Source: a virus
Virus genome (UHGV): UHGV-0183130
Direction: 5' to 3' (one strand)
DNA: 40,647 nucleotides
Numbering within the stretch: position 1 is the stretch's first letter; every line of letters begins with the position of its first letter. This document shows positions 21,160 through 40,647 of the stretch, one piece after another. The position numbers and the translations under genes are program-made. The notes under the pieces are model-generated. The model was given only the letters and a program-made list of their open reading frames with translations. It searched no databases and was not told the DNA's origin.

Positions 21160-21400
21160 CACTCCATGCACAAAAACAGAGAAAGGAAACGCCCTCTGGC
21201 TATTTAGCCGTTTTTAAGGCTTATCATTTCCTTTCTTTTCAGGGGGTGTTTACAGTTAAAACAATGAATTAGCGAGAAGAAGAACGGAAACGGCAAATGC
21301 CTGAAAATTTTCATAAATAGCGAGAATCTGCGCGGTCGCCGCCCCGTAACGGAGCGGATCGCTGGAAAGGACCCGCAAACGATAATAAATATCAATTTCA
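21160..21400. other. cos site (cosB - cosN - cosQ), lambda type
   Basis: Reverse complement of 21300-21344 reads GGGCGGCGACCGCGCAGATTCTCGCTATTTATGAAAATTTTCAG, close to the lambda left end; 12-nt cohesive-end equivalent at 21333-21344; cosB-like sequence toward Nu1 and cosQ-like GCGGGTCCTTTCC...GTTACG on the other side. Confidence 0.8.
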
Positions 21401-21496
21401 CAATTCGATTTATAAGCTATCCCTATAATGATTCTCTTAGCGTATGCACAATTAAATGGGCACATCACATTTAGTGCCCTTAGGTTTTCTTCTAGA

Positions 21497-22000
21497 TTAC
21501 TTTGCTTTAAGAACGCTTTTTGATTCTTTAACTAAATCTTCCAGAAGTTTATTTGTCAACGATAAGAGATGTTCTTCAGCATCATCTGTATCTAACCCCT
21601 GAAAATTAACTTCATAGTCAACCTTATCTTCTCGTTTCAAATAATCAGTTAGAAGTTTTGATACTGATTCAGTAACCAGCAAGGGGCCGATATTGCTATA
21701 TTTTACTATTAAATCTTTTGCCTCAGCAGCTGAGATTTGTAATTTACTAAGTTTCTCAGCACTCAATTTGATAAAGTTTGGATATTCATCTGGACCTAAT
21801 CGTTGATACTCTTTCAAATCAGAATAATAATCTTGTAGAACCTTTACCTGATAAATTGCATTAGTTAATTCAATAAGGGCCCCTGCTCTCTTCTCCCACC
21901 ACTTTTCACTATAAAAACGTTTTAAAGCAAATAACATTGCAATCCATGCACCAAGTCCACCCGCTACTACAGAGATCACTAATTGGTAAATATAATTCAT
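21497..22000 (-). CDS. Hypothetical membrane-anchored protein, AT-rich cargo gene
   Basis: 167 aa, N-terminal hydrophobic helix IYQLVISVVAGGLGAWIAMLFAL then a charged helical region; SD GAGG before ATG; local GC roughly 35-38 percent versus about 52 percent in phage core. Confidence 0.5.
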   Translation of the reverse strand: MNYIYQLVISVVAGGLGAWIAMLFALKRFYSEKWWEKRAGALIELTNAIYQVKVLQDYYSDLKEYQRLGPDEYPNFIKLSAEKLSKLQISAAEAKDLIVKYSNIGPLLVTESVSKLLTDYLKREDKVDYEVNFQGLDTDDAEEHLLSLTNKLLEDLVKESKSVLKAK

Positions 22001-22420
22001 GATAGCCTCGCATATTTATACTGTGACTATTCTGCATGATTTTGACTAATCAGTACATATCAACCATTCTTTCCGGATGACCGCGCTAATGATATCGAGA
22101 CAATCCCTACAGATTAGTCTGCTCCCTATGGAATTTTTCTCTTCCACATTTCCTTCAGTACAGGGGGAGTTATTGTGCATTATCTCAGGCGCTCAGTGAA
22201 TGCCTCTGTAATGGCAGCCTGTGTAACAAACAACCTACCGTTCAATGGCTGAGCGACCTGCTATCACGATGGCAGTCATCATGGAAAAACCCCATATTTT
22301 CTATAATTAATAAGAAAATCATGACATAAGTCATTGAAATACTGATTGCTCATTGTAACTTGGATTTATCTCCCCACTTCCCTATTGCGCTATTGTTGGC
22401 GTAATTAGGAGAAGCTATAA

Positions 22421-22846
22421 ATGACTGGTAAAACAATTAATCTGCAATTTGATGGGTATTGGCGTGAAGCCAATAAGAGTGGCGTTCCAGATCAGTCAGG
22501 AATCTACTGCGTATACGCATGCAAAGCTGTTACTAATGGCTCCAAGACAACACTCGAAATTCGTAAGTTGATTTATATCGGCGAATCATCGAACGTCCGA
22601 TCCCGTGTGGCCACGCACGACAGGCTGGGTGACTGGAATGAACATTTAATGGTCGGTGAGACTCTCTGCTATTCCGTCGCTACTATTACTGGAAAAGATG
22701 ATCGGGTGCGCGCAGAAGCTGCATTGATTAACAAAATGACTCCCCCTGCAAATAGCGAGTATACGGGTGAATTCCCTTACAACGAAACCACTGTTAACTG
22801 CTCTGGGGAAACTTCGCATTTGCTTTCCACATTAACCGTTGGTTAA
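22421..22846 (+). CDS. Putative GIY-YIG-like nuclease domain protein
   Basis: 141 aa; SGIYCVY ... KLIYIGESSNVRSRVATH ... RVRAEAALINKMTPPAN fits GIY / YIG / Arg / Glu / Asn motif order, though the GIY-YIG spacing is longer than canonical. Opposite strand to flanking late genes. Confidence 0.45.
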   Translation: MTGKTINLQFDGYWREANKSGVPDQSGIYCVYACKAVTNGSKTTLEIRKLIYIGESSNVRSRVATHDRLGDWNEHLMVGETLCYSVATITGKDDRVRAEAALINKMTPPANSEYTGEFPYNETTVNCSGETSHLLSTLTVG

Positions 22847-22880
22847 CTCTTTAAAATGGCTGGCTAAGTCTAGCGGCCAT

Positions 22881-23042
22881 TCACTTCAAACATTGCTGCC
22901 TGATGTAATCCTGTAAGTAACTCACTTGCCCGGTGATGGTGCTGATTCGCTCTCTGAGGGTGAAATAATCCCGTTTAGCGGCGTCAGTAAGTCGGGGGCT
23001 ATTGCCATCATCCTTACCGATGATATTGTCTGTTTCACTCAC
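22881..23042 (-). pseudogene. Remnant of an Rz (i-spanin) 3' end
   Basis: In-frame minus translation [43 protein letters not shown] matches the Rz C-terminus; about 54 bp at 22945-22998 is a near-repeat of 24061-24114 inside the intact Rz; no N-terminal part. Confidence 0.55.
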
Positions 23043-23165
23043 TCAGTAGTTAGTATGGTTCTGCATTGTCCCTTCACTAATGTCGTGCTGCGATGTAATT
23101 TCACGGAGGGCCATCACTCCGGCACAGTACGCCGCCCCGATGACCTCCCAGTCCGGCTTGCTCAT
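23043..23165 (-). CDS. Small ORF (40 aa) with HTH-like sequence resembling terminase small-subunit N-termini; possibly a gene remnant
   Basis: MSKPDWEVIGAAYCAGVMALREITSQHDISEGTMQNHTNY; AGGA-type SD upstream; ends with stop directly followed in frame by the Rz remnant. Confidence 0.3.
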   Translation of the reverse strand: MSKPDWEVIGAAYCAGVMALREITSQHDISEGTMQNHTNY

Positions 23166-23251
23166 GCTTCTTTCCTATTAAAGTAATCCCATTGATGACC
23201 TATGGTAAGACGGAAGTAAACCTGTCATCTATGCTACCGAGGAGATTCTCG

Positions 23252-23440
23252 ATGGACGAAACAATTACTGAAAATGCTATTAAGCAAGCATATAGCGTTA
23301 CCATCATGCAGCTTTTTAATGTCTATCTAAATTCAGCAAACGATCCCAACGCATCAGCAAGATTTCAGGAAGGGCTTCGTCTTGCGATACAAGTCCGAGA
23401 TGCCTGCTTGCAAATCGCCTCCCAAAACCATGCGCCATGA
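23252..23440 (+). CDS. Hypothetical small protein (AT-rich cargo)
   Basis: ATG with GAGGAG SD; 62 aa; first of three tandem same-strand small ORFs; 4-nt overlap with next ORF. Confidence 0.3.
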   Translation: MDETITENAIKQAYSVTIMQLFNVYLNSANDPNASARFQEGLRLAIQVRDACLQIASQNHAP

Positions 23441-23685
23441 ATTCATTAGCGGCCTATTCAAAAACTACCATTACGATGGGTCTGCCCATGGTTATGGCAA
23501 CGCAGAAAGGTAATAGAATAAGAGTTAATCCCCTGACCTTACCAAACCAGCGGCCCACCCTAATTAGCTCGATTACTTTGAATACAACTTTTGTGTTTAG
23601 GCAACCTCAAAAATCATACAAACATATCACCCACGCTGATAAAAAAACAATCCAAAATAAAATCTCATTTACATCACTGGAGTAA
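23437..23685 (+). CDS. Hypothetical small protein (AT-rich cargo)
   Basis: 82 aa ORF overlapping the previous stop (ATGA); no recognisable family. Confidence 0.25.
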   Translation: MNSLAAYSKTTITMGLPMVMATQKGNRIRVNPLTLPNQRPTLISSITLNTTFVFRQPQKSYKHITHADKKTIQNKISFTSLE

Positions 23686-23690
23686 CAACC

Positions 23691-23936
23691 ATGCCTAACT
23701 GTGAACTTTTAACCGAAACCGGCGTTGATAACTTTGCCATTGTTATCAAATTTCTATCAGAAAACAACCTTATAGATGAAGCAGTTAATTATTTAAAAAA
23801 CAATGGCCATACAAATATTAGAGTCAGCATCGAAGCTGTTGAAGACATACAGAAATTCTTATCCGAAAAATATCCATCATCCTCATCAAGCAAAGCTGAT
23901 GCCATAATTAATTGCAGTCATAGCCATTGCAGTTAA
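23691..23936 (+). CDS. Hypothetical small protein (AT-rich cargo)
   Basis: 81 aa ORF with GGAG SD; acidic, Ser-rich C-terminus; no recognisable family. Confidence 0.3.
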   Translation: MPNCELLTETGVDNFAIVIKFLSENNLIDEAVNYLKNNGHTNIRVSIEAVEDIQKFLSEKYPSSSSSKADAIINCSHSHCS

Positions 23937-23996
23937 TTACTAACGCTATGCCAACTAATATTGAATAACTAATCAGACAGCGAAATAGGTGACAAG

Positions 23997-24461
23997 TCAT
24001 TTTAAATTCTGCGCACTGACATATTCTTGTAATCCGGCAAGTTGCTTGGTGACAGTTTCTATTCGCTCTCTGAGAGTGAAATAATCCCGTTGAGCGGTGT
24101 CAGTAAGTCTGGGGCCGGTTGCATCATCCATGCTGGCGGTGTCGGTGGTTTGACGCACTTTATTGCAGGCGGCTGCAACGCGCAGCTGCTTGCGCCCAGA
24201 CTCAACATCGCCACGTAGACCGCTAATGGTGTTTTTCGCATCAGCTAACTCCTTCGTATATTTGGCATCCAGTGCAGCGACATCGCGCTGGCGGGTTTGC
24301 ATGTCGGTGATAGTAACGTTAGCTAGGCTGAGCTTTTCAGTTGCTTTGTTGCGTTGGTCTTTGTAGGTGATCGCGTTGTCGCGGTAGTGGTTAACGGCCC
24401 AGCCTAGAGATAAGATTATGCAGATGATCACAGTAATGATGATGTTTGTTAGTCGACTCAC
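23997..24461 (-). CDS. Rz: Spanin inner-membrane subunit Rz
   Basis: 154 aa; [16 protein letters not shown]...[20 protein letters not shown] parallels lambda Rz; GTG start overlapping endolysin stop. Confidence 0.85.
24059..24241 (-). CDS. Rz1: Spanin outer-membrane lipoprotein Rz1, embedded in Rz in +1 frame
   Basis: 60 aa with signal peptide and lipobox (LGASSC), proline-rich [17 protein letters not shown] and C-terminal TPLNGIIS, as in lambda Rz1. Confidence 0.75.
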
Positions 24462-28318: not shown

Positions 28319-28705
28319 TCAGGCGGCTGCACCCGCCGGTTCATATCTGCTGATCGTTATCTCTACCCGACCTTTCGGCACTACGGGTCCCCATTCCACC
28401 AGCATGCGCTTAATCTGGCTGTCGTCTTCCCAGACACCCGCATGCGTCAGCGCGTCAAACAGGGCTTTGTTGTAATTATCGATATCCCGGCGGCGCGCAT
28501 CCGGCGGGTACAGAGTGATTTCTACCGCTGCCAGTTCAGTCGATGGCTTCGGGAGACGTCGTAATTGCTCAATGATCGCCACGCAGGCAGCGCTCTGGTA
28601 TTTACGGCCATCAGCGCTAATGAGGTGACGACCGGCCAGCGGCCCCTTGTTAGGGGCGCGCCAGTAGGTGTTCACGCTCGGAGGGAACGGGAGCACAAGT
28701 TTCAT
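28319..28705 (-). CDS. rusA: Holliday junction resolvase RusA
   Basis: Start at ATG 28705 (SD AGGAGG): MKLVLPFPPSVNTYWR ... DARRRDIDNYNKALFDALTHAGVWEDDSQI parallels E. coli RusA. Confidence 0.75.
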   Translation of the reverse strand: MKLVLPFPPSVNTYWRAPNKGPLAGRHLISADGRKYQSAACVAIIEQLRRLPKPSTELAAVEITLYPPDARRRDIDNYNKALFDALTHAGVWEDDSQIKRMLVEWGPVVPKGRVEITISRYEPAGAAA

Positions 28706-30591
28706 GCCACCTCCTGATGTTGCACTGCACACAGTTCCGGAAGATTTGCCTCCACCAGCGCCCTGGCGAATGGTGGTGGTACCGCATTACCACAGCGGGC
28801 TACCTGCTTATCTTTTGCATAGCGATTTCCACGGTAGTCCTGATCAATAACGTATCCATCCGGGAAGCCCTGCGCTTTGTAGAGTTCATGCGGCTGCAAC
28901 ATGCGCATTCCGATATCAACGATCTGGTATTTAACCCCATCGATCGTTACCAGCCATTCATCGTCACTTTCCCCGCAATACGTCTCGAGAAATGTGCGTA
29001 CCTCACCCACGTGTTGGCCACCAGAGGTGATTGTTGGCATGGGCACATCAAGACGTTGCCCGTCGCGGCATGTTCCACGCAGTTTCACCAAATGAGAGGC
29101 AACAACCGCATGATGATCGACAGTGGTCACTGAGTGTGCGGGTTCATCCATACTGACACCCGGTCCCGTATAGTTACCGCCGTAGTGTTTAGCCAGAAAC
29201 GCGCCCACCAATTGTGATTTACCTCCACCACCAGCTGTAATTGTGGCGCTCGGTTCGTCTGCCCGGTGGCCGACGCTGGCCCCAAACTGGCGGGCTATCA
29301 CTGGCGCAACAAGACAGGCGCGGGATTGCTTCATAATGGTATGAGCAGGTTTATCCAGCGGGCGCGGTTTAGCCTGGTATTCACTACCACCATTACCCGC
29401 CAGGAATGGCGTCAGTGCAGCCTCAACAATCCCGAGTGCATGCCCATTCCCACCCGGGCGTTTTGACGTGCCAGCGGTTACCGTCGGGACAGGTTCGGTA
29501 ACGGGCTGCCCGGTTGCCCCAGTGCGGAATTTTGTCAGGTGTGGAACAGCTAACGCGTAACCGTGGGTTTTAGTAATAGTTTGCAAAGGCTCGTCCAGCT
29601 TCTGACCACGGAAACAGTCGTAACTCGTTTTGGTGCTGGTGTGATTGCACTTCACGATAAACGGCGACGCACTTTCGATAACAAAGCGCTGTATGCCGCG
29701 CGCGATCCGCTTCAGCGTGTTCTCCGCCAGCGTTTTTTTGCGGTCGAAGATGGACAGGGCCGGAACATTCCAGTCGATACATTCCGCAGCGGTACGCCAT
29801 GGCATCAGCCTGCCGCTCTGCACCTCCAGAGACTTAGGATCCCCATGGGTAACTGCAGGCCACTGGATTGGGCAGCCATCGCAGCGCATAACCATGAAGA
29901 AGCGTTTGCGGATCGTCGGCGCGCCGTAATCACACGCGCGTAGTTCGCGATAATCAACATCATATCCAAGCCCATCCACCAGCTTTTGCGCCTGCTCGCT
30001 ACCTCTTTCGATAGACAGAAACTCACAAACCTCAGCCAGTGCCGGGTGATCAGCAGGAATACCAGTGGATAGCATGCCGACAAATGCCTCAAATGTTTCA
30101 CCAGCTCGTGCCGGATCCGGACGCTGCGCATCATAAGGCGGTATAACTGGGCCAACAAATGCAGCCAAATCATCCCCCACCAGATTGGGATTTTGTGGCT
30201 CAGCTGGTAATAGCGGTCCCCACGTTTTGAACTCTTCCACGTTCTCCAGCATCATCACGCGCGGTCGCTTTGCCAGTGCCCAACGCAGAACAATCCAGGC
30301 CAGACCGCGTATCTCTTTTTTCACAGGCTTGGCGCCTTTTGCCTTCGAGAAGTGTCGGCAGTCCGGGCTAAACCATGCCAGGCCGACAGGATTACCTCCG
30401 GTGGCGGCTACCGGATCCACGTCAAATACGGATTCGCAGTAATGCAGTGTTTCCGGGTGATTCGTCTTGTGCATCGCAATGGCGTTTTCGTCGTGGTTGA
30501 TCGCAATATCCACGCTGCGTCCGATCGCCAGTTCAATACCCGTTGATGCGCCACCGCCACCAGCAAAGTTATCAACGATAATCTCACGCAT
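28702..30591 (-). CDS. DNA (cytosine-5)-methyltransferase, orphan, with large extra region
   Basis: 629 aa; motif I-like DNFAGGGGASTG, PC-motif-like SPDCRHFSKAKG, ENV motif (MLENVEEF); no adjacent restriction endonuclease candidate. Confidence 0.7.
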   Translation of the reverse strand: MREIIVDNFAGGGGASTGIELAIGRSVDIAINHDENAIAMHKTNHPETLHYCESVFDVDPVAATGGNPVGLAWFSPDCRHFSKAKGAKPVKKEIRGLAWIVLRWALAKRPRVMMLENVEEFKTWGPLLPAEPQNPNLVGDDLAAFVGPVIPPYDAQRPDPARAGETFEAFVGMLSTGIPADHPALAEVCEFLSIERGSEQAQKLVDGLGYDVDYRELRACDYGAPTIRKRFFMVMRCDGCPIQWPAVTHGDPKSLEVQSGRLMPWRTAAECIDWNVPALSIFDRKKTLAENTLKRIARGIQRFVIESASPFIVKCNHTSTKTSYDCFRGQKLDEPLQTITKTHGYALAVPHLTKFRTGATGQPVTEPVPTVTAGTSKRPGGNGHALGIVEAALTPFLAGNGGSEYQAKPRPLDKPAHTIMKQSRACLVAPVIARQFGASVGHRADEPSATITAGGGGKSQLVGAFLAKHYGGNYTGPGVSMDEPAHSVTTVDHHAVVASHLVKLRGTCRDGQRLDVPMPTITSGGQHVGEVRTFLETYCGESDDEWLVTIDGVKYQIVDIGMRMLQPHELYKAQGFPDGYVIDQDYRGNRYAKDKQVARCGNAVPPPFARALVEANLPELCAVQHQEVA

Positions 30592-33539: not shown

Positions 33540-34199
33540 ATGAAAACAGAGATGAAAGACCGCATCAGATCCAGACGAATCCAGCTGGATATAACCCAAT
33601 TAGCACTGGCTAAAAAGCTTGGTGTAAGCCGTGTATCGGTTACAAAATGGGAAAACGGCACGACAAAGCCTGATGGTGAGAACCTTCACCAGTTGGCTCA
33701 GGCTCTATCAACAACACCAGAGTGGATACTCTATGGAAGCGGTGATGAGGCCATTGACGACACGCGCGTCGTGCCTTTTTTGAAACCCCCTGTAGCTGTA
33801 CCGATCATATCGGCAGTTCAAGCCGGTTTATGGACGGATAGCTATGCCTGCTCAAGACTTACAGACGTGATTTCCTGGACTCAAACAACTGCAAATGTAT
33901 CGGATGAAGCGTTTGGGTTAGTAGTCCGCGGTGAGTCGATGACTAACCCGCAAGGACTTCCATCTATACCAGAAGGTTCTATTGTTATAGTCGAGCCCCA
34001 TTATGGGCAGCTTGATGATCTATATGGGAAAATAGTCGTTGCTATATTGGATGGGACATCAGAAGCAACGGTTAAAAAATTAGTTTGGGATAGCCCCTAC
34101 TCATACCTAATGCCACTGAATCCGTTATTTAAGCCAATCCAAATTGATGGTAACTGTCGCATTGTCGGAAAAGTTGTACAAATCACTCAAAACATTTAA
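33540..34199 (+). CDS. cI: CI-like repressor (HTH_XRE N-domain plus LexA/S24 autopeptidase C-domain)
   Basis: 219 aa; N-terminal HTH (ITQLALAKKLGVSRVSVTKWENG), C-terminal S24 features (VRGESM serine region, KK pair); divergent from cro. Confidence 0.85.
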   Translation: MKTEMKDRIRSRRIQLDITQLALAKKLGVSRVSVTKWENGTTKPDGENLHQLAQALSTTPEWILYGSGDEAIDDTRVVPFLKPPVAVPIISAVQAGLWTDSYACSRLTDVISWTQTTANVSDEAFGLVVRGESMTNPQGLPSIPEGSIVIVEPHYGQLDDLYGKIVVAILDGTSEATVKKLVWDSPYSYLMPLNPLFKPIQIDGNCRIVGKVVQITQNI

Positions 34200-34244: not shown

Positions 34245-34340
34245 TCCCAAAGGTAACATAAAGTACATTACTCGCTTGACCGCAAAGGTAACTAAAGGTA
34301 CATTTAAATCATCAAACGTAATCATTGGTACGTTTGGTGA
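34245..34340. promoter_or_regulatory. Left operator region (OL) with candidate pL
   Basis: Two further copies of the OR motif (AAAGGTAACATAAAGTACATT 34249-34269; AAAGGTAACTAAAGGTACATT 34284-34304) plus GTAATCATTGGTAC; candidate -35 TTGACC (34276-34281) and -10 TACATT (34299-34304) with 17-bp spacer. Confidence 0.5.
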
Positions 34341-34579: not shown

Positions 34580-34951
34580 ATGAGTAATGACCGCATGACC
34601 GTAGTGCCAGATTTTCTTGGCGAACTGGATGCCGGCGTGTTCATGAACAAAATCGCGGCAGCACTTAATACTACCGCGCTTGGCGTTCTGAACAACGGCA
34701 ACAAAGGCAAAGTAGTCCTCACATTTGATTTTGAGCGTATGGGTAATTCCGTTGAAGAGAAGCGCGTGAAGATCAAGCACAAGCTGAACTACAGCACCCC
34801 GACACCGCGTGGTAAAGCCTCCGAAGAGGACACAACCGAAACCCCGATGTGGGTCAACAAAGGCGGGAAGCTAACCATCCTGCAGGAAGATCAGGGTCAG
34901 CTGTTCGGGATCACTGGCGCGGTGGATGGAAAGCTTAAAGCGGCACAGTGA
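34580..34951 (+). CDS. Hypothetical early protein (YfdP-like by size and position)
   Basis: 123 aa, SD GAGGG; first convincing gene of the early-left operon; no N-like arginine-rich motif recognised. Confidence 0.5.
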   Translation: MSNDRMTVVPDFLGELDAGVFMNKIAAALNTTALGVLNNGNKGKVVLTFDFERMGNSVEEKRVKIKHKLNYSTPTPRGKASEEDTTETPMWVNKGGKLTILQEDQGQLFGITGAVDGKLKAAQ

Positions 34952-35007: not shown

Positions 35008-35835
35008 ATGTCTCAGTTAGACAGCGGTACCTTCAAGCAGGTCAAAGACCTGGTTCTTTCAGGTTATCACCTGAATGATATTCATGGCCTGGCTTGCCCG
35101 ACCGCATTGCTGCCAGATGGTACTGGCGTTGAAAGCCTTGAGCGCTTTTCTCTGGAGCGTTTCCGCTTTCGTGGCGCAATGACCACAACCAGTATTGACG
35201 ACTTCGCACGTTATTCTAAAGGTTACGCCAGCGACAGTGAGCCAGCTCGTTGCTTCATTGACGCTGACAATATGACCGCCCGTTCAGTGTTCAACATCGG
35301 CACCCTGGATAATCCCGGTCACGCCGATAACGTTGCTTCAATCACCCTGAAGAAAACCGCCCCGTTCCGCGCGTTACTGCAGATCGATGGTCAACGTCTG
35401 AAGCAAAAGCAAATTGCTGAATGGCTGGAAGACTGGAGTGATTACCTGCTGGCGTTTGATGCCGATGGTAATACGATGCAGATTTCCCAGGCGGCTCAGG
35501 CAGTGCGTCGTATCACCATTCAACAAGCAACCCAGCAGGACCATGAAACTAGTGATTTCGCTGGTAAAAAATCCCTGATGCAAAGCGTTGAAGCAAGCAG
35601 CAAAGACGTAATGCCTGTGGCATTCGAGTTCAAATGTGTGCCGTATGAAGGTCTGGGCGAACGCCGCTTTAGCTTGCGTAACAGCCTGCTGACCAGCGAT
35701 GAACCCTGCTTTGTTCTGCGCATCATCCAACTTGAAGCCCAGGAAGAAGAGATCGCCAACGAATTCCGCGATTTGCTGATCAGCAAGTTCGACGGTGAAT
35801 CAGTGGAAACTTTCATCGGTAACTTTAAAGCCTAA
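35008..35835 (+). CDS. DUF2303-family protein (YfdQ-like)
   Basis: 275 aa with AAGGA SD; size and neighbourhood (before an HD-domain YfdR-like gene) match the yfdQ-yfdR pair recalled from E. coli prophage CPS-53. Confidence 0.5.
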   Translation: MSQLDSGTFKQVKDLVLSGYHLNDIHGLACPTALLPDGTGVESLERFSLERFRFRGAMTTTSIDDFARYSKGYASDSEPARCFIDADNMTARSVFNIGTLDNPGHADNVASITLKKTAPFRALLQIDGQRLKQKQIAEWLEDWSDYLLAFDADGNTMQISQAAQAVRRITIQQATQQDHETSDFAGKKSLMQSVEASSKDVMPVAFEFKCVPYEGLGERRFSLRNSLLTSDEPCFVLRIIQLEAQEEEIANEFRDLLISKFDGESVETFIGNFKA

Positions 35836-35871: not shown

Positions 35872-35963
35872 ATTGAAGCGTAATTCCATTAATTATCGCC
35901 AACCGGCGAGGGATTCGTGCAACCAAAATCTGCGCGGTGCAGCGCGCCAATATGGAGAAAACC

Positions 35964-36503
35964 ATGAGCTACATTCAGACATTATCCGGCAAACATTTTA
36001 ATTACCTCGATATCCAACAGGACGATATCGTGATCGAAGATATCGCTACCGCGTTGTCTCATATCTGCCGCTTTGCTGGGCATCTTCCTGAGTTTTACAG
36101 CGTCGGCCAGCATAGCGTTTTAACCAGCCATCTCGTTCCGCAGGAGTTTGCATTAGAAGCACTGCTTCATGATGCCGCCGAAGCATACCTGCAGGATATC
36201 CCCTCACCGCTTAAGCGCCTGTTACCGGATTACCAGGTGATCGAAGCTCGCGTAGACGCTGCTATTCGCCAGAAATTTGGCCTTCCTATGGAGCAACACC
36301 CAACCGTGAAATATGCCGATCTGGTGATGCTCGCCAGCGAACGCCGCGATTTTGAAATTGACGAAGGTTCCGTGTGGCCATGCCTCAATGGCGTTGTCCC
36401 GACGGACCTATTCATCATCAACCCAGTTCGTCCAGGCCAGTCATACGGCATGTTCATAAATCGCTTTAATGAGTTGATGGAGCAGCGCCAATGTGCCGCA
36501 TGA
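35964..36503 (+). CDS. HD-domain phosphohydrolase (YfdR-like 5'-deoxynucleotidase)
   Basis: Start at ATG 35964 (SD GGAG): MSYIQTLSGKHFNYLD...ICRFAGH...LLHDAAEAY fits HD-domain metal-binding His/Asp pattern and remembered YfdR. Confidence 0.6.
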   Translation: MSYIQTLSGKHFNYLDIQQDDIVIEDIATALSHICRFAGHLPEFYSVGQHSVLTSHLVPQEFALEALLHDAAEAYLQDIPSPLKRLLPDYQVIEARVDAAIRQKFGLPMEQHPTVKYADLVMLASERRDFEIDEGSVWPCLNGVVPTDLFIINPVRPGQSYGMFINRFNELMEQRQCAA

Positions 36504-36667
36504 AGGTAAAAGAACTCGTAGCGGAGGCTTTTGCCTCCGTTGCTGAATTGCCACCAAAGCATGCACCGCTTATGCGCGAAGTCGCCACCAGACTGGACAC
36601 TACGTTCGCAGCATTAAAAGAGTCTCTGGTGCAACTGGAACAGGAACGTAAAGGTAAAACGCCATGA
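36500..36667 (+). CDS. Small ORF (55 aa), translationally coupled on both sides
   Basis: ATG overlaps the YfdR-like stop (ATGA) and its stop overlaps the next ATG (ATGA); MKVKELVAEAF...; below the ORF-track length cut-off. Confidence 0.3.
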   Translation: MKVKELVAEAFASVAELPPKHAPLMREVATRLDTTFAALKESLVQLEQERKGKTP

Positions 36668-36918
36668 CCGTATTTGAATATCTCCAGGCTCATCCGAATA
36701 CCACCAGCGGTGAAATCGCCAAAGGTATGAACAAAACTACGCCAGCGGTCGCCGGAGCATTATCGCAACTCTATGGCACAGGCCGGATCGTGAAGTCTGG
36801 TGTTCGCAAGGGCATTCCAACATACCGTGTTAACGATATGCCGTTTGGGTGTAGTAACAGCCTAACCATGATGTTTAACCAGCTATTGAATAGAGCCAGA
36901 CAGGGAAGCGCGCTATGA
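36664..36918 (+). CDS. Small winged-helix DNA-binding protein (MarR-like wHTH)
   Basis: 84 aa; FEYLQAHPNTTSGEIAKGMNKTTPAVAGALSQLYGTGRIV is a typical wHTH recognition-helix/wing layout; coupled (ATGA) to flanking ORFs. Confidence 0.45.
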   Translation: MTVFEYLQAHPNTTSGEIAKGMNKTTPAVAGALSQLYGTGRIVKSGVRKGIPTYRVNDMPFGCSNSLTMMFNQLLNRARQGSAL

Positions 36919-37991
36919 GCAAATCGAGTATGGAGTATTACTTCGAGTTCCCTGCCTCTCGCGGCTTGCAGGGGGATACGCTTATTCTTTTGATGAACGT
37001 TCCAGGACGAACCCTATCCCGCGTACTGGCATCTGATAATTACGGACACACGCTTGAGCGTTCTCAGCGTGAACTCAATAAATCACGCGTAAAAAATTTT
37101 TACGAATACCTAGTGGCAGCTGCTGAAAATAAGGAGCCTTTCATCATCCCACCACTGGTTGGTAACTGTGCTTCACATGTGGAGTTTGAAGAGTTCGGCA
37201 ATACAAACGTAGGCGTTGTTCGGTTCCCAATGGACGCAGAAATTAAACTTTTTGATGGGCAACATCGTGGTGCAGGTATAACCATGTTCTGCAGAGAATA
37301 CGATACACCCCTGTTTGTACCTTTGATGATGACTCTGCAACTACCACTGAAGACACGCCAGCAATTTTTCTCTGATATCAATAACAACGTATCTAAGCCT
37401 TCTGCAGCAATAAATATGGCTTATAACGGCAGGGATCAGGTTGCCCAGACAATGGTGTCATTCCTCTCCACTCACTCAGTGTTCTCCGAGATCACCGATT
37501 TTGAACACAGCGTGGTTCCGGCAAAAAGTGACCTCTGGATTAGTTTTAAGGCCGTTGGTGATGCAACTGCTAAATTCGCGGGTAACGGGGACGATGCGCT
37601 GTCTACTGGCGATATTTATGACCTTTGGGAAGCGTGGCTGAAGCTGACGGCTATTGATGGTATCCGACACGGTGTATCACCAGCTGAATACAAGCGAGAT
37701 TACATCCAATTCCATGCGGTGATGATCAATGCGTTTGGCTATGCAGTCCAGGAACTACTGAGGCGTCGCCCTGCGCATATCATCGTGCAGATGATCGAAG
37801 AACTGGTAACAAAAGCCACAATGACCGAGCTGGAAGACTTCTTCCTTATCTCTTCATGGGATGGTGTTTGTGCTGATGCCAGCAAAGAAAGAGCCACGGT
37901 AATTGCCAGCGTTCCGGCACAGAAAGCTGCAGCACAAAGGCTTGCAATGGCTATCACAGCAGGGACATTCGCAATGGAGGCAGCCCAATGA
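36915..37991 (+). CDS. DGQHR-domain protein (DndB-like / ParB-like fold)
   Basis: 358 aa with the signature FDGQHRGAGI; coupled by ATGA overlaps to the wHTH gene upstream and the Ea22-like gene downstream. Confidence 0.6.
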   Translation: MSKSSMEYYFEFPASRGLQGDTLILLMNVPGRTLSRVLASDNYGHTLERSQRELNKSRVKNFYEYLVAAAENKEPFIIPPLVGNCASHVEFEEFGNTNVGVVRFPMDAEIKLFDGQHRGAGITMFCREYDTPLFVPLMMTLQLPLKTRQQFFSDINNNVSKPSAAINMAYNGRDQVAQTMVSFLSTHSVFSEITDFEHSVVPAKSDLWISFKAVGDATAKFAGNGDDALSTGDIYDLWEAWLKLTAIDGIRHGVSPAEYKRDYIQFHAVMINAFGYAVQELLRRRPAHIIVQMIEELVTKATMTELEDFFLISSWDGVCADASKERATVIASVPAQKAAAQRLAMAITAGTFAMEAAQ

Positions 37992-38458
37992 CAGCACTCA
38001 ACAAACAGGCGCTGCGCCAAACAGCAGAGAAAGCCACCCAGGGCGAATGGTGGTCCGATGTTGTCGAAACTGACGGTGAATACGGCGAGGGTGAAGACAG
38101 AGCGTCTGGATACCACTCATACGCGGTTTACGTCGGTAGCGAGTCATTGCTCGACATGACCAATTCCACAGCAGCGTGCATTCACGAAGAGTTGGATCAC
38201 GATTACCACATGGCTTGGGATGAGACAGCCAAACGCAACGCAGAATTCATCGCCGCCGCTAACCCTGCCACTGTGCTGGCGCTGCTGGATGAGCTGGAAA
38301 TTGCAGAGAAGCGCATAGCAGAACTGGTGGCGCGGACCGTGACGCTGCCGACGCCGTACCCGAAAGGTTACGGGCTAGTTTCTGATAAATATAACTTTGC
38401 ACTGGAAGAATGTGCCGACGCAATCCGCGCCGCTGGCATTGGCGTGAAGGGGGAATGA
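37988..38458 (+). CDS. Ead/Ea22-like protein
   Basis: 156 aa; C-terminal AANPATVLALLDELEIAEKRIAEL resembles the conserved motif of Ea22-family phage proteins. Confidence 0.45.
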   Translation: MTALNKQALRQTAEKATQGEWWSDVVETDGEYGEGEDRASGYHSYAVYVGSESLLDMTNSTAACIHEELDHDYHMAWDETAKRNAEFIAAANPATVLALLDELEIAEKRIAELVARTVTLPTPYPKGYGLVSDKYNFALEECADAIRAAGIGVKGE

Positions 38459-38931
38459 TGGCAGAGCAAATAATTTTGGATGTGTGTTGTGGCTCCCGCA
38501 TGTTCTGGTTCAACAAGCAGGACACCCGCGCCGTGTTCACTGATATCCGCGCCGAAGAGCACGAACTGTGCGACGGTCGCCGCCTGGTTATCAGTCCAGA
38601 CCTGATTGCCGACTTTCGTTCATTGCCGTTCGCTGATTCTTCTTTTCCGGTTGTGGTGTTTGACCCGCCGCACCTGGAACGCGTGGGCCAGTCTGCCTGG
38701 ATGGGTAAAAAGTACGGGCGATTGAACAAAAAAACGTGGCGTTCTGATTTGCGCGCCGGTTTCAAAGAAGCGTTTCGGGTGCTGTGGCCACGCGGCGTGC
38801 TTATTTTCAAATGGAACGAAACACAAATCCCAGTTAGCCAGATTCTGGCTCTTACAGATGTGAAACCTGCAATTGGTCAGCGTACCGGGAAGAACGACAA
38901 AACCCACTGGATTATCTTTGTGAAGGACTAA
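38455..38931 (+). CDS. Small amino-methyltransferase-like protein (DPPH motif), putative DNA methyltransferase (YfdM-like)
   Basis: SAM-binding-like ILDVCCGSRMF and catalytic-type VVVFDPPH motif; ATG overlaps upstream stop (ATGA). Confidence 0.55.
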   Translation: MMAEQIILDVCCGSRMFWFNKQDTRAVFTDIRAEEHELCDGRRLVISPDLIADFRSLPFADSSFPVVVFDPPHLERVGQSAWMGKKYGRLNKKTWRSDLRAGFKEAFRVLWPRGVLIFKWNETQIPVSQILALTDVKPAIGQRTGKNDKTHWIIFVKD

Positions 38932-39237: not shown

Positions 39238-39278
39238 TTTTGTAAGCCCGGGTGCAGCCGGGTTGTATGGAGAAAATA

Positions 39279-39515
39279 ATGTCGCGAATGATCCCTTTAC
39301 TTGACTGGGCAAAAGAGGAATTTGGAGAGCAAGCACCAAGTGAACGCATATTGAAAAAATATGCAAAGGGAAAAATGATGGCTCCTCCAGCAATTAAGGT
39401 TGGTCGCTGCTGGATGGTTGATCGTAATGCCCGATTTGTAGGAATGCTTGCAGAACCGAAAATTCCGACTTCGGCCAGCCCAAGATTACAACGGATAATT
39501 GCTGATGGCTGCTAG
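39279..39515 (+). CDS. xis: Excisionase-like protein
   Basis: About 78 aa from ATG 39279 (SD GGAG); immediately upstream of and overlapping int; KVGRCWMVDRNARFVG fits small excisionase DNA-binding proteins. Confidence 0.5.
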   Translation: MSRMIPLLDWAKEEFGEQAPSERILKKYAKGKMMAPPAIKVGRCWMVDRNARFVGMLAEPKIPTSASPRLQRIIADGC

Positions 39516-40647
39516 ACCACGCACTCACAAAATACCAATCCCTAACCTGTACTGCAAATTGGATAAGCGCACCGGTAAGGTATATTGGCAATATAAACAT
39601 CCTATTTCAGGTCGTTTTCACAGCCTTGGAACCGATGAATCCGAGGCTAAACAAGTCGCCACAGAAGCTAACATAATCATAGCTGAACAGCGAACTAGGC
39701 AGATCTTGAGCGTGAATGATCGCCTGGCACGGATGAAAGGCAGGCGCACTGATATTACGGTTACTGAGTGGCTCGATAAATACATAGGCATTCAGGAGGA
39801 AAGGCTTAAAAATAACGAGCTTAAACCAAACTCCTTTCTTCAAAAAGGTAAGCCTGTCCGTTTATTCAGAGAACACTGCGGCCTGCAGCATCTAAAGGAT
39901 ATTTCAGCTCTCGATATTGCAGAAATAACTGATGCCATTAAAGCCGAAGGCCACAATCGCATGGCTCAGGTAGTTAGAATGGTGCTCATCGATGTTTTTA
40001 AAGAGGCGCAACATGCCGGACACGTTGCCCCCGGATACAATCCGGCGCAAGCCACTAAGCAACCGAGAAATAGAATAACAAGGCAGCGTCTTTCCTTTGA
40101 TGAATGGAGTGTTATTTATAAGACGGCGGAACAGCAGCAGCCTTATCTTCAGTGTGGCATGTTATTAGCCCTAATCACTGGTCAGCGTCTTGGTGATATA
40201 TGCAATATGAAATTCACCGATGTATGGGATGACATGCTCCATATCGAGCAGGAAAAAACAGGTTCTCGTCTGGCTATTCCGTTAGATCTTAGATGCGAGG
40301 TGCTGGGCCTCACTCTCAGGGATGTTATTTCAAAATGTCGGGATGCGGTTGTCAGTAAATATCTTGTCCATTTCAGGCACACCACATCCCAGGCCAATAG
40401 AGGTGATCGAGTGTCGAGCAGCTGCCTGACATCCACTTTTAAAAAAGCCAGAGACAAAAGCGGCCTAGAGTGGAAAAACGGTACGCCCCCAACTTTCCAT
40501 GAACAGCGTTCTTTATCGGAGCGACTGTATCGTGAACAGGGTCTGGATACTCAGAAACTGCTGGGGCACAAGTCCAGAAAAATGACGGATAAGTATAACG
40601 ACGATCGAGGGAAAGACTGGGTCGTTGTTGGGGTAAAAACGGGGTAA
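39505..40647 (+). CDS. int: Tyrosine integrase, lambda Int family
   Basis: C-terminal catalytic region parallels lambda Int (ITGQRLGDICNMKFTDV, PPTFHEQRSLSERLY, LLGHKS, DKYNDDRGKDW); track ORF begins at TTG 39499, first ATG at 39505; stop codon is the last three bases of the window. Confidence 0.85.
   Translation: MAARPRTHKIPIPNLYCKLDKRTGKVYWQYKHPISGRFHSLGTDESEAKQVATEANIIIAEQRTRQILSVNDRLARMKGRRTDITVTEWLDKYIGIQEERLKNNELKPNSFLQKGKPVRLFREHCGLQHLKDISALDIAEITDAIKAEGHNRMAQVVRMVLIDVFKEAQHAGHVAPGYNPAQATKQPRNRITRQRLSFDEWSVIYKTAEQQQPYLQCGMLLALITGQRLGDICNMKFTDVWDDMLHIEQEKTGSRLAIPLDLRCEVLGLTLRDVISKCRDAVVSKYLVHFRHTTSQANRGDRVSSSCLTSTFKKARDKSGLEWKNGTPPTFHEQRSLSERLYREQGLDTQKLLGHKSRKMTDKYNDDRGKDWVVVGVKTG

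Follow-up and report, generated by a model that had tools for sequence, protein, structure and literature searches.

DndB, an ATP-modulated, sequence-specific repressor of dndBCDE, binds promoter palindromes (PMC4507180), and DpdB, of the 7-deazaguanine Dpd system, is a DNA-stimulated ATPase that forms a homodimer (PMC10164549). The leading region of plasmid F encodes a ParB-like clamp, HerB (YfjB), that attaches to the chromosome of the host and reprograms transcription (PMC13370423). Both HerB and KorB of RK2 are orphan ParB-like clamps gated by nucleoside triphosphate (NTP), with a canonical ParB helix-turn-helix (HTH) and CTP binding. Fusions of a ParB domain to a DNA methyltransferase (MTase) bind ATP, and the ParB domain of one of them, Bce_0392 of B. 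cereus, has been reported to nick DNA. Here we describe a gene for a 358-amino acid (aa) protein of the DGQHR (DndB) family, which resembles DndB and DpdB most in build, and HerB and KorB most in lifestyle. It lies on the UHGV virus genome UHGV-0183130, a stretch of 40,647 nucleotides (hereafter the window) that is a lambdoid prophage.

The prophage gene product is a stand-alone DndB-family (DGQHR) protein. It matched the NCBIfam profile TIGR03187 (DGQHR) with 191.6 bits against a cutoff of 58.85, the entire profile (positions 1-276 of 276) aligning with aa 14-282. Further matches were to Pfam DndB (PF14072, 161 bits), to PADLOC DndB (133 bits) and, over its full length, to phrog_7901 (670 bits), a phage family of unknown function. 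These scores are far beyond chance, and with all four defining features present the protein truly belongs to the DGQHR domain family. An earlier note, made from the letters of the window alone, had proposed the open reading frame (ORF; 36915-37991, + strand, 358 aa), its FDGQHR signature (F113-D-G-Q-H-R118) and its assignment to DGQHR/DndB/ParB-like proteins, and the profile searches bear it out in each of these. The same note had described the C-terminal 230 aa or so as lacking any motif, and this description has to be given up. The residues that follow the DGQHR signature belong to the same curated domain as far as aa 282, including an FxxxN motif at 152-156, and the last 75 aa or so are conserved in the family (W315, G317, C319, Q336). 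A profile search of 1.84 billion representative proteins with the DGQHR protein gave 1,904 clusters at E<=1e-3; the best matches mostly aligned across profile positions 3 to about 350, so that distant homologs align in this last part as well. The whole protein is therefore one known module. RefSeq already annotates the gene as "DGQHR domain-containing protein" and the family has its own PHROG. In the literature we found no paper characterising an orphan DGQHR protein of a phage or plasmid; the supplement of a 2024 Nature study of leading regions lists only a seven-member "DGQHR domain-containing" family, without comment.

Conservation was counted over 79 aligned homologs, the most distant at 29% identity. 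Invariant throughout were P13, Q19, R49-S-Q-R52, Y65, D114-G-Q116, R148, F152, D154 and N156, as well as K161-P162, Y170, D195, E197, K212, D216 and W238. These positions include the QR pair, the D, G and Q of DGQHR, and the F and N of FxxxN, the motifs being as previously defined (PMC4619093; coordinates in Table 1). An AlphaFold2 model built on the same alignment had a mean predicted local distance difference test (pLDDT) score of 92.4 and a predicted TM-score (pTM) of 0.86. In it an alpha+beta N-terminal domain (about aa 9-160) precedes a half that is mostly helical, and according to this model the N-terminal domain has the ParB/sulfiredoxin (Srx) fold. The Box I helix-loop and the Box II GxxR of ParB/Srx NTP binders are both present: helix 56-71 of the model corresponds to the Box I helix and runs into the loop E74-V82, and G115-Q-H-R118 supplies the GxxR. 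A DndB-like protein has been shown to bind ATP and GTP (PMC12704722 and its supplement). The E74-V82 loop corresponds in position and composition to the EFFLPTS loop of that protein, and D114-G-Q-H-R118 is equivalent to its GQHRVEA. From this match of motifs we infer that the DGQHR protein probably binds nucleotide too.

A second conserved loop, beginning D195-F-E-H, lies in the helical half. Its D and E are kept also in Vibrio and Pseudoalteromonas phage homologs, and the residue at position 199 is N in 76 of the 79 homologs and S in the prophage protein. An HNH or PD-(D/E)xK nuclease at D195-F-E-H was considered and rejected, since the stretch forms a loop in the AlphaFold2 model and gave no nuclease profile match; compared with the EHxxP motif of the DUF1524 HNH domain, E197-H198-x3-P202 has the wrong spacing, and it sits in a loop. 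The sole profile match of the C-terminal half at E<=10 was DndB. Sequence searches for relatives of solved structure gave none at E<=1, and Foldseek against the PDB gave no match below 1e-3 with the model. Its matches in BFVD were only to other ParB/DndB/GmrS-like viral proteins, with low TM-scores.

The protein can be set apart from each of the characterised relatives. With DndB/DptB (TIGR03233; S. enterica Cerro 87) it shares PF14072, the DGQHR domain, the QR, DGQHR and FxxxN motifs and a length of about 355 aa, and its nearest functional model is the way in which DndB binds DNA under modulation by ATP. It is not DndB proper, however: it scored 111.3 bits against the DndB equivalog TIGR03233, below the cutoff of 328, it has no dndC, dndD or dndE neighbours, and its gene lies inside a phage early operon, whereas DndB heads an autoregulated one. 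It is not DpdB, which has DGQQR (DUF262-type) in place of DGQHR; profile scans of the window found no dpdA/TGT-like partner gene, and whereas DpdB works with a partner enzyme, the idea of an MTase as partner here failed a reverse association test (below). From HerB and KorB it differs in three ways: no HTH can be recognised in it, it falls into the DGQHR branch, and its expected ligand, judged from homology, is ATP or GTP. No HTH_ParB or ParBc Pfam match was found in it, unlike the ParB-like proteins encoded next to it in related loci, and no ParA was found among the early-region genes scanned in the window; it is not a canonical ParB, having no HTH, ParA or parS. The type IV restriction enzymes GmrSD, SspE, BrxU and DndI (DUF262 + DUF1524 HNH) have a related ParB-fold NTPase domain with DGQ(Q/H)R, the QR pair and FxxxN. 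They carry a C-terminal DUF1524 HNH, but the DGQHR protein has no HNH domain, and it is not a GmrSD/SspE enzyme.

The gene is placed where the first genes of a lambdoid phage are transcribed. Structural, lysis, Q-antiterminator, antirepressor and replication genes occupy the minus strand of the window, and a cI-like repressor gene on the plus strand is followed by a pL-like promoter candidate, which is the only plus-strand sigma-70-like site between the repressor gene and position 39351. The stop codon of the winged-helix gene overlaps the DGQHR start (ATGA) and the next gene overlaps the DGQHR stop. Because of these ATGA overlaps with both neighbours, and because the sole upstream promoter-like site is the one after the cI-like gene, the DGQHR gene is internal to a pL-type early-left operon. 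By analogy with lambdoid biology it should hence be expressed on infection or induction and silent in the lysogen. Two small ORFs complete the operon, one of 58 aa between the YfdR-like gene and the winged-helix gene and one of 100 aa between the small MTase gene and xis. The small MTase is of gamma-type, with a DPPH motif and no evident target-recognition domain; its likely start (MMAEQ, after GGAGGG) overlaps the Ea22 stop. Two more MTases of the prophage are encoded on the minus strand, a phage Dam (PF05869, 30584-31465) and a 629-aa C-5 cytosine MTase (28702-30591). The placing of the gene in a prophage early operon, proposed in the earlier note, is thus upheld by repressor, promoter, operon, xis and int in that order, and so is the word orphan, as profile scans found no dnd, ssp or dpd genes in the 40.6-kb window.

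Table 1. Positions, in the window, of the DGQHR gene, its motifs and predicted domains, and the early-left operon
Feature	Position	Strand	Basis or remarks
DGQHR-domain (DndB-family) protein gene, 358 aa	36915..37991	+	ORF, ATG at 36915, stop ends 37991
Predicted N-terminal ParB/sulfiredoxin-fold NTP-binding domain, about aa 9-160	36939..37394	+	AlphaFold2 model
R49-S-Q-R-E53, "QR pair" motif	37059..37073	+	R49, S50, Q51, R52 invariant; E53 in 75/79
E74-P-F-I-I-P-P-L-V82, Box I (C-motif) loop equivalent	37134..37160	+	P79, G83 at least 90% conserved
D114-G-Q-H-R118, signature pentapeptide (Box II, GxxR phosphate-binding motif)	37254..37268	+	D114, G115, Q116 invariant; H117 75/79; R118 78/79
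F152-S-D-I-N156, FxxxN motif of DGQHR domain	37368..37382	+	F152, D154, N156 invariant in 79
Helical C-terminal half, about aa 165-350, part of DndB-family module	37407..37964	+	Helices from AlphaFold2 model
D195-F-E-H-S-V-V-P202, conserved loop	37497..37520	+	D195, E197 invariant; H198 76/79
cI-like repressor, HTH_3 + Peptidase_S24	33540..34199	+	Pfam
pL-like promoter candidate	34276..34304	+	Sigma-70-like, consensus match only
Unknown ORF, operon	34580-34951	+	
DUF2303 gene, operon	35008-35835	+	
YfdR-like deoxynucleoside monophosphate (dNMP) phosphatase, operon	35937-36503	+	
84-aa winged-helix protein	36664..36918	+	phrog_1687 MarR-like
Ead/Ea22-like protein	37988..38458	+	PF13935 68 bits; start overlaps DGQHR stop
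Small orphan DNA MTase, 158 aa from MMAEQ start	38455..38931	+	PADLOC MTase_II 236.7 bits; phrog_954 285 bits
Excisionase + lambda-type integrase, operon end	39252..40647	+	PF07825, PF09003, PF00589; int reaches window end

Elsewhere in the window, a cargo block of low GC content (0.39-0.44) at 21200-23990 separates the small terminase from the lysis cassette and has the look of a scar left by a moron insertion. It contains a gene for a 167-aa protein without family match (21497-22000, - strand), one for a 141-aa, weakly GIY-YIG-like protein (22421-22846, + strand; Pfam E=0.0019, below cutoff) and three ORFs of 81-82 aa (23192-23936, + strand). A duplicated C-terminal fragment of Rz (22881-23042, - strand; Phage_lysis E=1.6e-14) is found beside the intact Rz (23997-24461). 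No tRNA genes or Rfam elements were found in the window.

DGQHR proteins 98-99% identical to that of the window occur in Citrobacter and Salmonella, and at 56-92% identity the family extends to at least a dozen genera of Enterobacterales. Homologs are carried by the Salmonella phages SPN1S, SPN9TCW and SPC32H (69% identity), by Klebsiella phages (71%) and by Vibrio and Pseudoalteromonas phages (32-34%). Across 103 DGQHR loci, collected and with their ORFs clustered, the flanking genes were mosaic. An integrase gene was located downstream in 71 of the 103, at a median distance of 1.9 kb, and upstream in only 3. In phages that lack the DGQHR gene its slot holds DUF1317, PerC-like or ASCH-like genes. 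The winged-helix gene that overlaps it in the window stands without it in 25 loci, and 98 of 104 DGQHR-seeded loci lack the winged-helix gene; a two-gene module was therefore rejected, as the genes occur independently, and the winged-helix protein is not a functional partner. Canonical ParB-HTH genes lie directly upstream of the DGQHR gene in about a quarter of the loci. When the count was taken from the ParB-HTH genes, 24 of 77 (31%) and 19 of 74 (26%) were directly followed by a DGQHR gene, the slot after them being taken otherwise by Ea22-like, small membrane, DUF550 or winged-helix genes. Obligate pairing was thus also rejected, and the slot is a cargo hot spot.

These upstream genes, which form clusters 13 and 25 (L076:7201-7989, L001:4953-5816 and relatives), encode canonical ParB-like proteins of 262-287 aa with VDGRQR or IDGHHR and a ParB HTH. 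Many related lambdoid prophages have them in the core of the early-left operon and no ParA gene close to them, and where a DGQHR gene follows, two different ParB-fold genes stand in tandem.

The neighbours that most suggested a function were MTases. A same-strand MTase gene starts at most 1.5 kb downstream of the DGQHR gene in 33 of the 103 loci (32%), and these adjacent MTases belong to six unrelated families (MT-A70, phage Dam PF05869, D12, N6_N4, C-5 and small gamma-type). On the same strand none was found within 5 kb upstream, versus 28 in the first kb downstream, and the prophage in the window has three MTases in all. It could be supposed that the ParB-fold NTPase, by loading on DNA or remodelling it, lets the orphan MTases of the phage modify it efficiently and so guard it against restriction, much as DpdB does with DpdA, and the ATP-binding ParB-MTase fusions would offer a further precedent. 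Like the DGQHR loci, these fusions join a ParB fold to DNA methylation on mobile elements (phages and plasmids); the genes are separate here, however, and MTases almost always occur without a DGQHR gene. The reverse test started from the MTases. Of the 80 viral relatives closest to the SPN1S-type MT-A70 MTase only 2 had a DGQHR gene nearby, and of 80 close relatives of the window-type small MTase none had. Moreover, 70 of the 103 loci have no adjacent MTase, none was found in the 19-kb stretch examined around the copy on an IncL/M plasmid (below), and the slot in relatives without the DGQHR gene holds unrelated small genes. A helper of MTases was for these reasons demoted, despite the striking forward adjacency, to a role that we now think improbable. 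That both genes are cargo of the integrase-proximal accessory zone accounts for the adjacency. Taken together, the mosaic flanks, the independent winged-helix gene, the failed reverse test and the varied content of the slot show that the DGQHR gene is an autonomous, optional single-gene cassette in an integrase-proximal, early-left cargo hot spot.

Two phage loci have other arrangements. In the Vibrio phage Va_PF430-3_p42 (L004:5998-9193) a 539-aa homolog, with a C-terminal extension of about 190 aa without Pfam match, is directly followed by a gene for a 500-aa C-5 MTase and then by the integrase gene. In the Pseudoalteromonas phage KB12-38 (L005:1-7553) the DndB-like gene stands with several PAPS-reductase-family genes and DNA MTases. 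An Enterobacter MOBF plasmid (L428:6959-12332) has a homolog followed by a gene for a 669-aa protein of the PAPS-reductase family and one for an N6 MTase. The company of PAPS-reductase and MTase genes in KB12-38 and on this plasmid points to another kind of module, perhaps one that modifies DNA, assembled around the same ParB-fold protein.

The family is not confined to phages. A tblastn search of PLSDB revealed DGQHR homologs on 1,070 plasmids, 885 of them conjugative, from many genera; most are plasmids of 60-90 kb from Klebsiella, Enterobacter and E. coli. The commonest plasmid homolog group has about 41% identity to the DGQHR protein over 88% of its length. On an IncL/M plasmid an intact 427-aa homolog (L426:8986-10269) lies in the leading region, where the order is JAB-domain gene, HTH gene, DGQHR, DUF4942, Hha, DUF1380, antirestriction gene, ssb and mobA/traI. 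All the genes in this order point toward the origin of transfer (oriT), as suits transcription off the entering strand, in the recipient. Leading regions as a class carry an excess of anti-defence genes (PMC11541004). On a Pseudomonas MOBP plasmid a 535-aa homolog lies between ssb/Abi/umuDC and ardR, near mobA/traI and oriT, and in a conjugative element of V. cholerae the homolog adjoins genes for an S24 repressor, SSB and ArdC-N. The DGQHR family thus recurs in three kinds of mobile element, namely phages, a conjugative element and plasmids, in the regions that are expressed first. The E. coli IncF plasmid pS802-CTX-M (L429:6518-9588) differs from both the phage and the IncL/M contexts in having three genes in a row, for a 539-aa DndB-like protein, a 165-aa hypothetical protein and a "STM4504/CBY_0614 family" protein.

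Chromosomal copies were present in 321 of 5,426 complete E. coli genomes (5.9%). The common variant lies in what seems to be a decayed e14-like prophage at icd with the order bet'-exo-DUF1317-DGQHR-traR-DUF4222-xis-int. In one such remnant, that of E. coli RUT3575 (L431, NZ_CP048010.1 2708340-2723148), bet and a replication gene are truncated, an IS1 is inserted, and a McrBC-like pair (AAA ATPase and McrC) is adjacent.

How such a protein might serve its element can be put together from the predicted fold, the position of the gene and the relatives. The DGQHR protein would be made from the early-left operon right after infection or induction, and its Box I/Box II pocket would take up ATP or GTP. 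By analogy with DndB, DpdB and HerB, nucleotide binding and hydrolysis would then gate its association with DNA, probably as a dimer. Once on DNA it may help the newly active element to become established, either by changing transcription of the host or the element or by blunting DNA-targeting defence. We put the chance that the protein is such a nucleotide-gated DNA-binding switch, aiding the element in its first minutes, at about even, and most of the uncertainty concerns what it does on DNA. Binding of ATP or GTP is presumed from homology to the DndB-like binder, association with DNA and dimerisation are suggested by DndB and DpdB, and a role in establishment or counter-defence would follow from the genomic context and from HerB/YfjB.

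Several observations weigh against a nucleotide-gated establishment switch. Profile scans recognised no HTH or other DNA-binding domain in the DGQHR protein. Most close relatives of the carrier phages lack the gene, and its context in accessory hot spots is weak evidence for function, because many unrelated cargo genes occupy the same spots. Among 40 evenly spaced plasmid records, listed from the 1,070, IS1B splits the DGQHR homolog in 17, mostly on plasmids of 59-72 kb (an example is NZ_CP068313.1, 30200-31935). Many of these plasmids are exactly 63,589 bp in length, and from this size we take them to be of the pOXA-48 type. The gene is hence dispensable for plasmid spread in those hosts. Lastly, the DGQHR gene survives intact in the decayed e14-like prophage of about 300 complete E. 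coli genomes, and it could there have a role that benefits the host instead. The intact 427-aa IncL/M allele and the IS1B-split allele form a natural allele pair.

The ParB/Srx pocket could also act on free nucleotides without DNA binding, as a hydrolase that depletes ATP or GTP, for example, or destroys signal nucleotides of a defence system. The ParB/Srx fold does include true enzymes (sulfiredoxin, SerK), an NTP-depletion role has been proposed for DndB (PMC10853773), and the many invariant residues are enzyme-like. Neighbouring cargo, moreover, is often nucleotide-acting, such as the YfdR-like dNMP phosphatase and a dATP/dGTP pyrophosphohydrolase. However, the characterised relatives DndB and DpdB act on or with DNA, and the sequence gives no substrate, so that we attach only a small chance to a nucleotide hydrolase.

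Little credence, likewise, is given to a prophage defence or abortive-infection effector of the AIPR/AbiU1 or GmrSD/SspE kind, whose ParB-fold sensor would be coupled to a nuclease or HEPN RNase and would counter superinfecting phages. A HEPN RNase has been claimed for DndB (PMC3632139), and a HEPN-like (Rx4-6H) pattern, [K/R]260-[R/K]261...H267, is present in the DGQHR protein. The R is replaced by K-K in 10 of 32 close homologs, however, and the R...H pattern is absent from the phage homologs of 32-34% identity. No HEPN, HNH or other nuclease profile matched the C-terminal half at E<=10, and on both grounds a HEPN RNase in this half is not supported. The gene also lacks a promoter of its own, and its operon is expected to be repressed in the lysogen. 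In addition, the plasmid homologs examined lie in leading regions, with the IncL/M copy so oriented that it would be expressed as the plasmid enters a recipient; this is where counter-defence genes, rather than defence genes, belong.

The earlier note had suggested binding to modified DNA or interference with the modification-dependent defence of the host. As an anti-Dnd/Ssp/Dpd factor of this sort, the protein would mimic DndB at the dnd promoter of the host, or on modified DNA, and so disturb that defence. In favour of it are the homology to DndB, the repressor of dndBCDE, and the sensing of phosphorothioate DNA by the ParB-fold domains of SspE and DndI, but we consider it very improbable, given the low score against the DndB equivalog, the lack of any dnd, ssp or dpd gene near the loci inspected (with no dnd genes recognised among the annotated recurrent neighbour clusters of the 103 loci) and the rarity of dndBCDE, found in 1.82% of bacterial genomes (PMC8569181), as against the frequency of the family in E. 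coli and on plasmids, so that most hosts met should lack the target. What stands of the suggestion is its broad part, a role in conflict with host defence, which fits both the early-left operon and the plasmid leading regions beside ssb and antirestriction genes.

A wider generalisation of the establishment switch is tentative, and we think it rather less probable than the switch itself. Orphan DndB-family proteins might be widespread "first-wave" factors of temperate phages (in the early-left operon), integrative/conjugative elements and conjugative plasmids (in the leading region), the epidemic pOXA-48 (IncL/M) family among these plasmids, acting as ATP/GTP-gated, HTH-less ParB-fold clamps. 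They would load on host or element DNA straight after entry and reprogram transcription or shield DNA from defence nucleases, and would form a second, independent ParB-fold solution beside HerB/YfjB.

To the existing annotation this analysis adds a correction of the supposedly novel C-terminus, a confident model of the ParB fold, evidence for an autonomous early-operon cassette and a negative result on the link to MTases. It also places the DGQHR family in the leading regions of conjugative plasmids, including those taken to be of the pOXA-48 type; the family is present on 1,070 plasmid records and in some 6% of the complete genomes of E. coli. If the gene were instead a dispensable regulator, it would be an ordinary annotated gene of unknown function; interest in it would rise if the family proved to be a general establishment or anti-defence factor. 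Should the establishment or counter-defence reading be true, orphan ParB-fold nucleotide switches would extend beyond CTP and beyond HTH-bearing proteins, and phages and clinically important resistance plasmids would have a common tool for their first minutes in a new cell.

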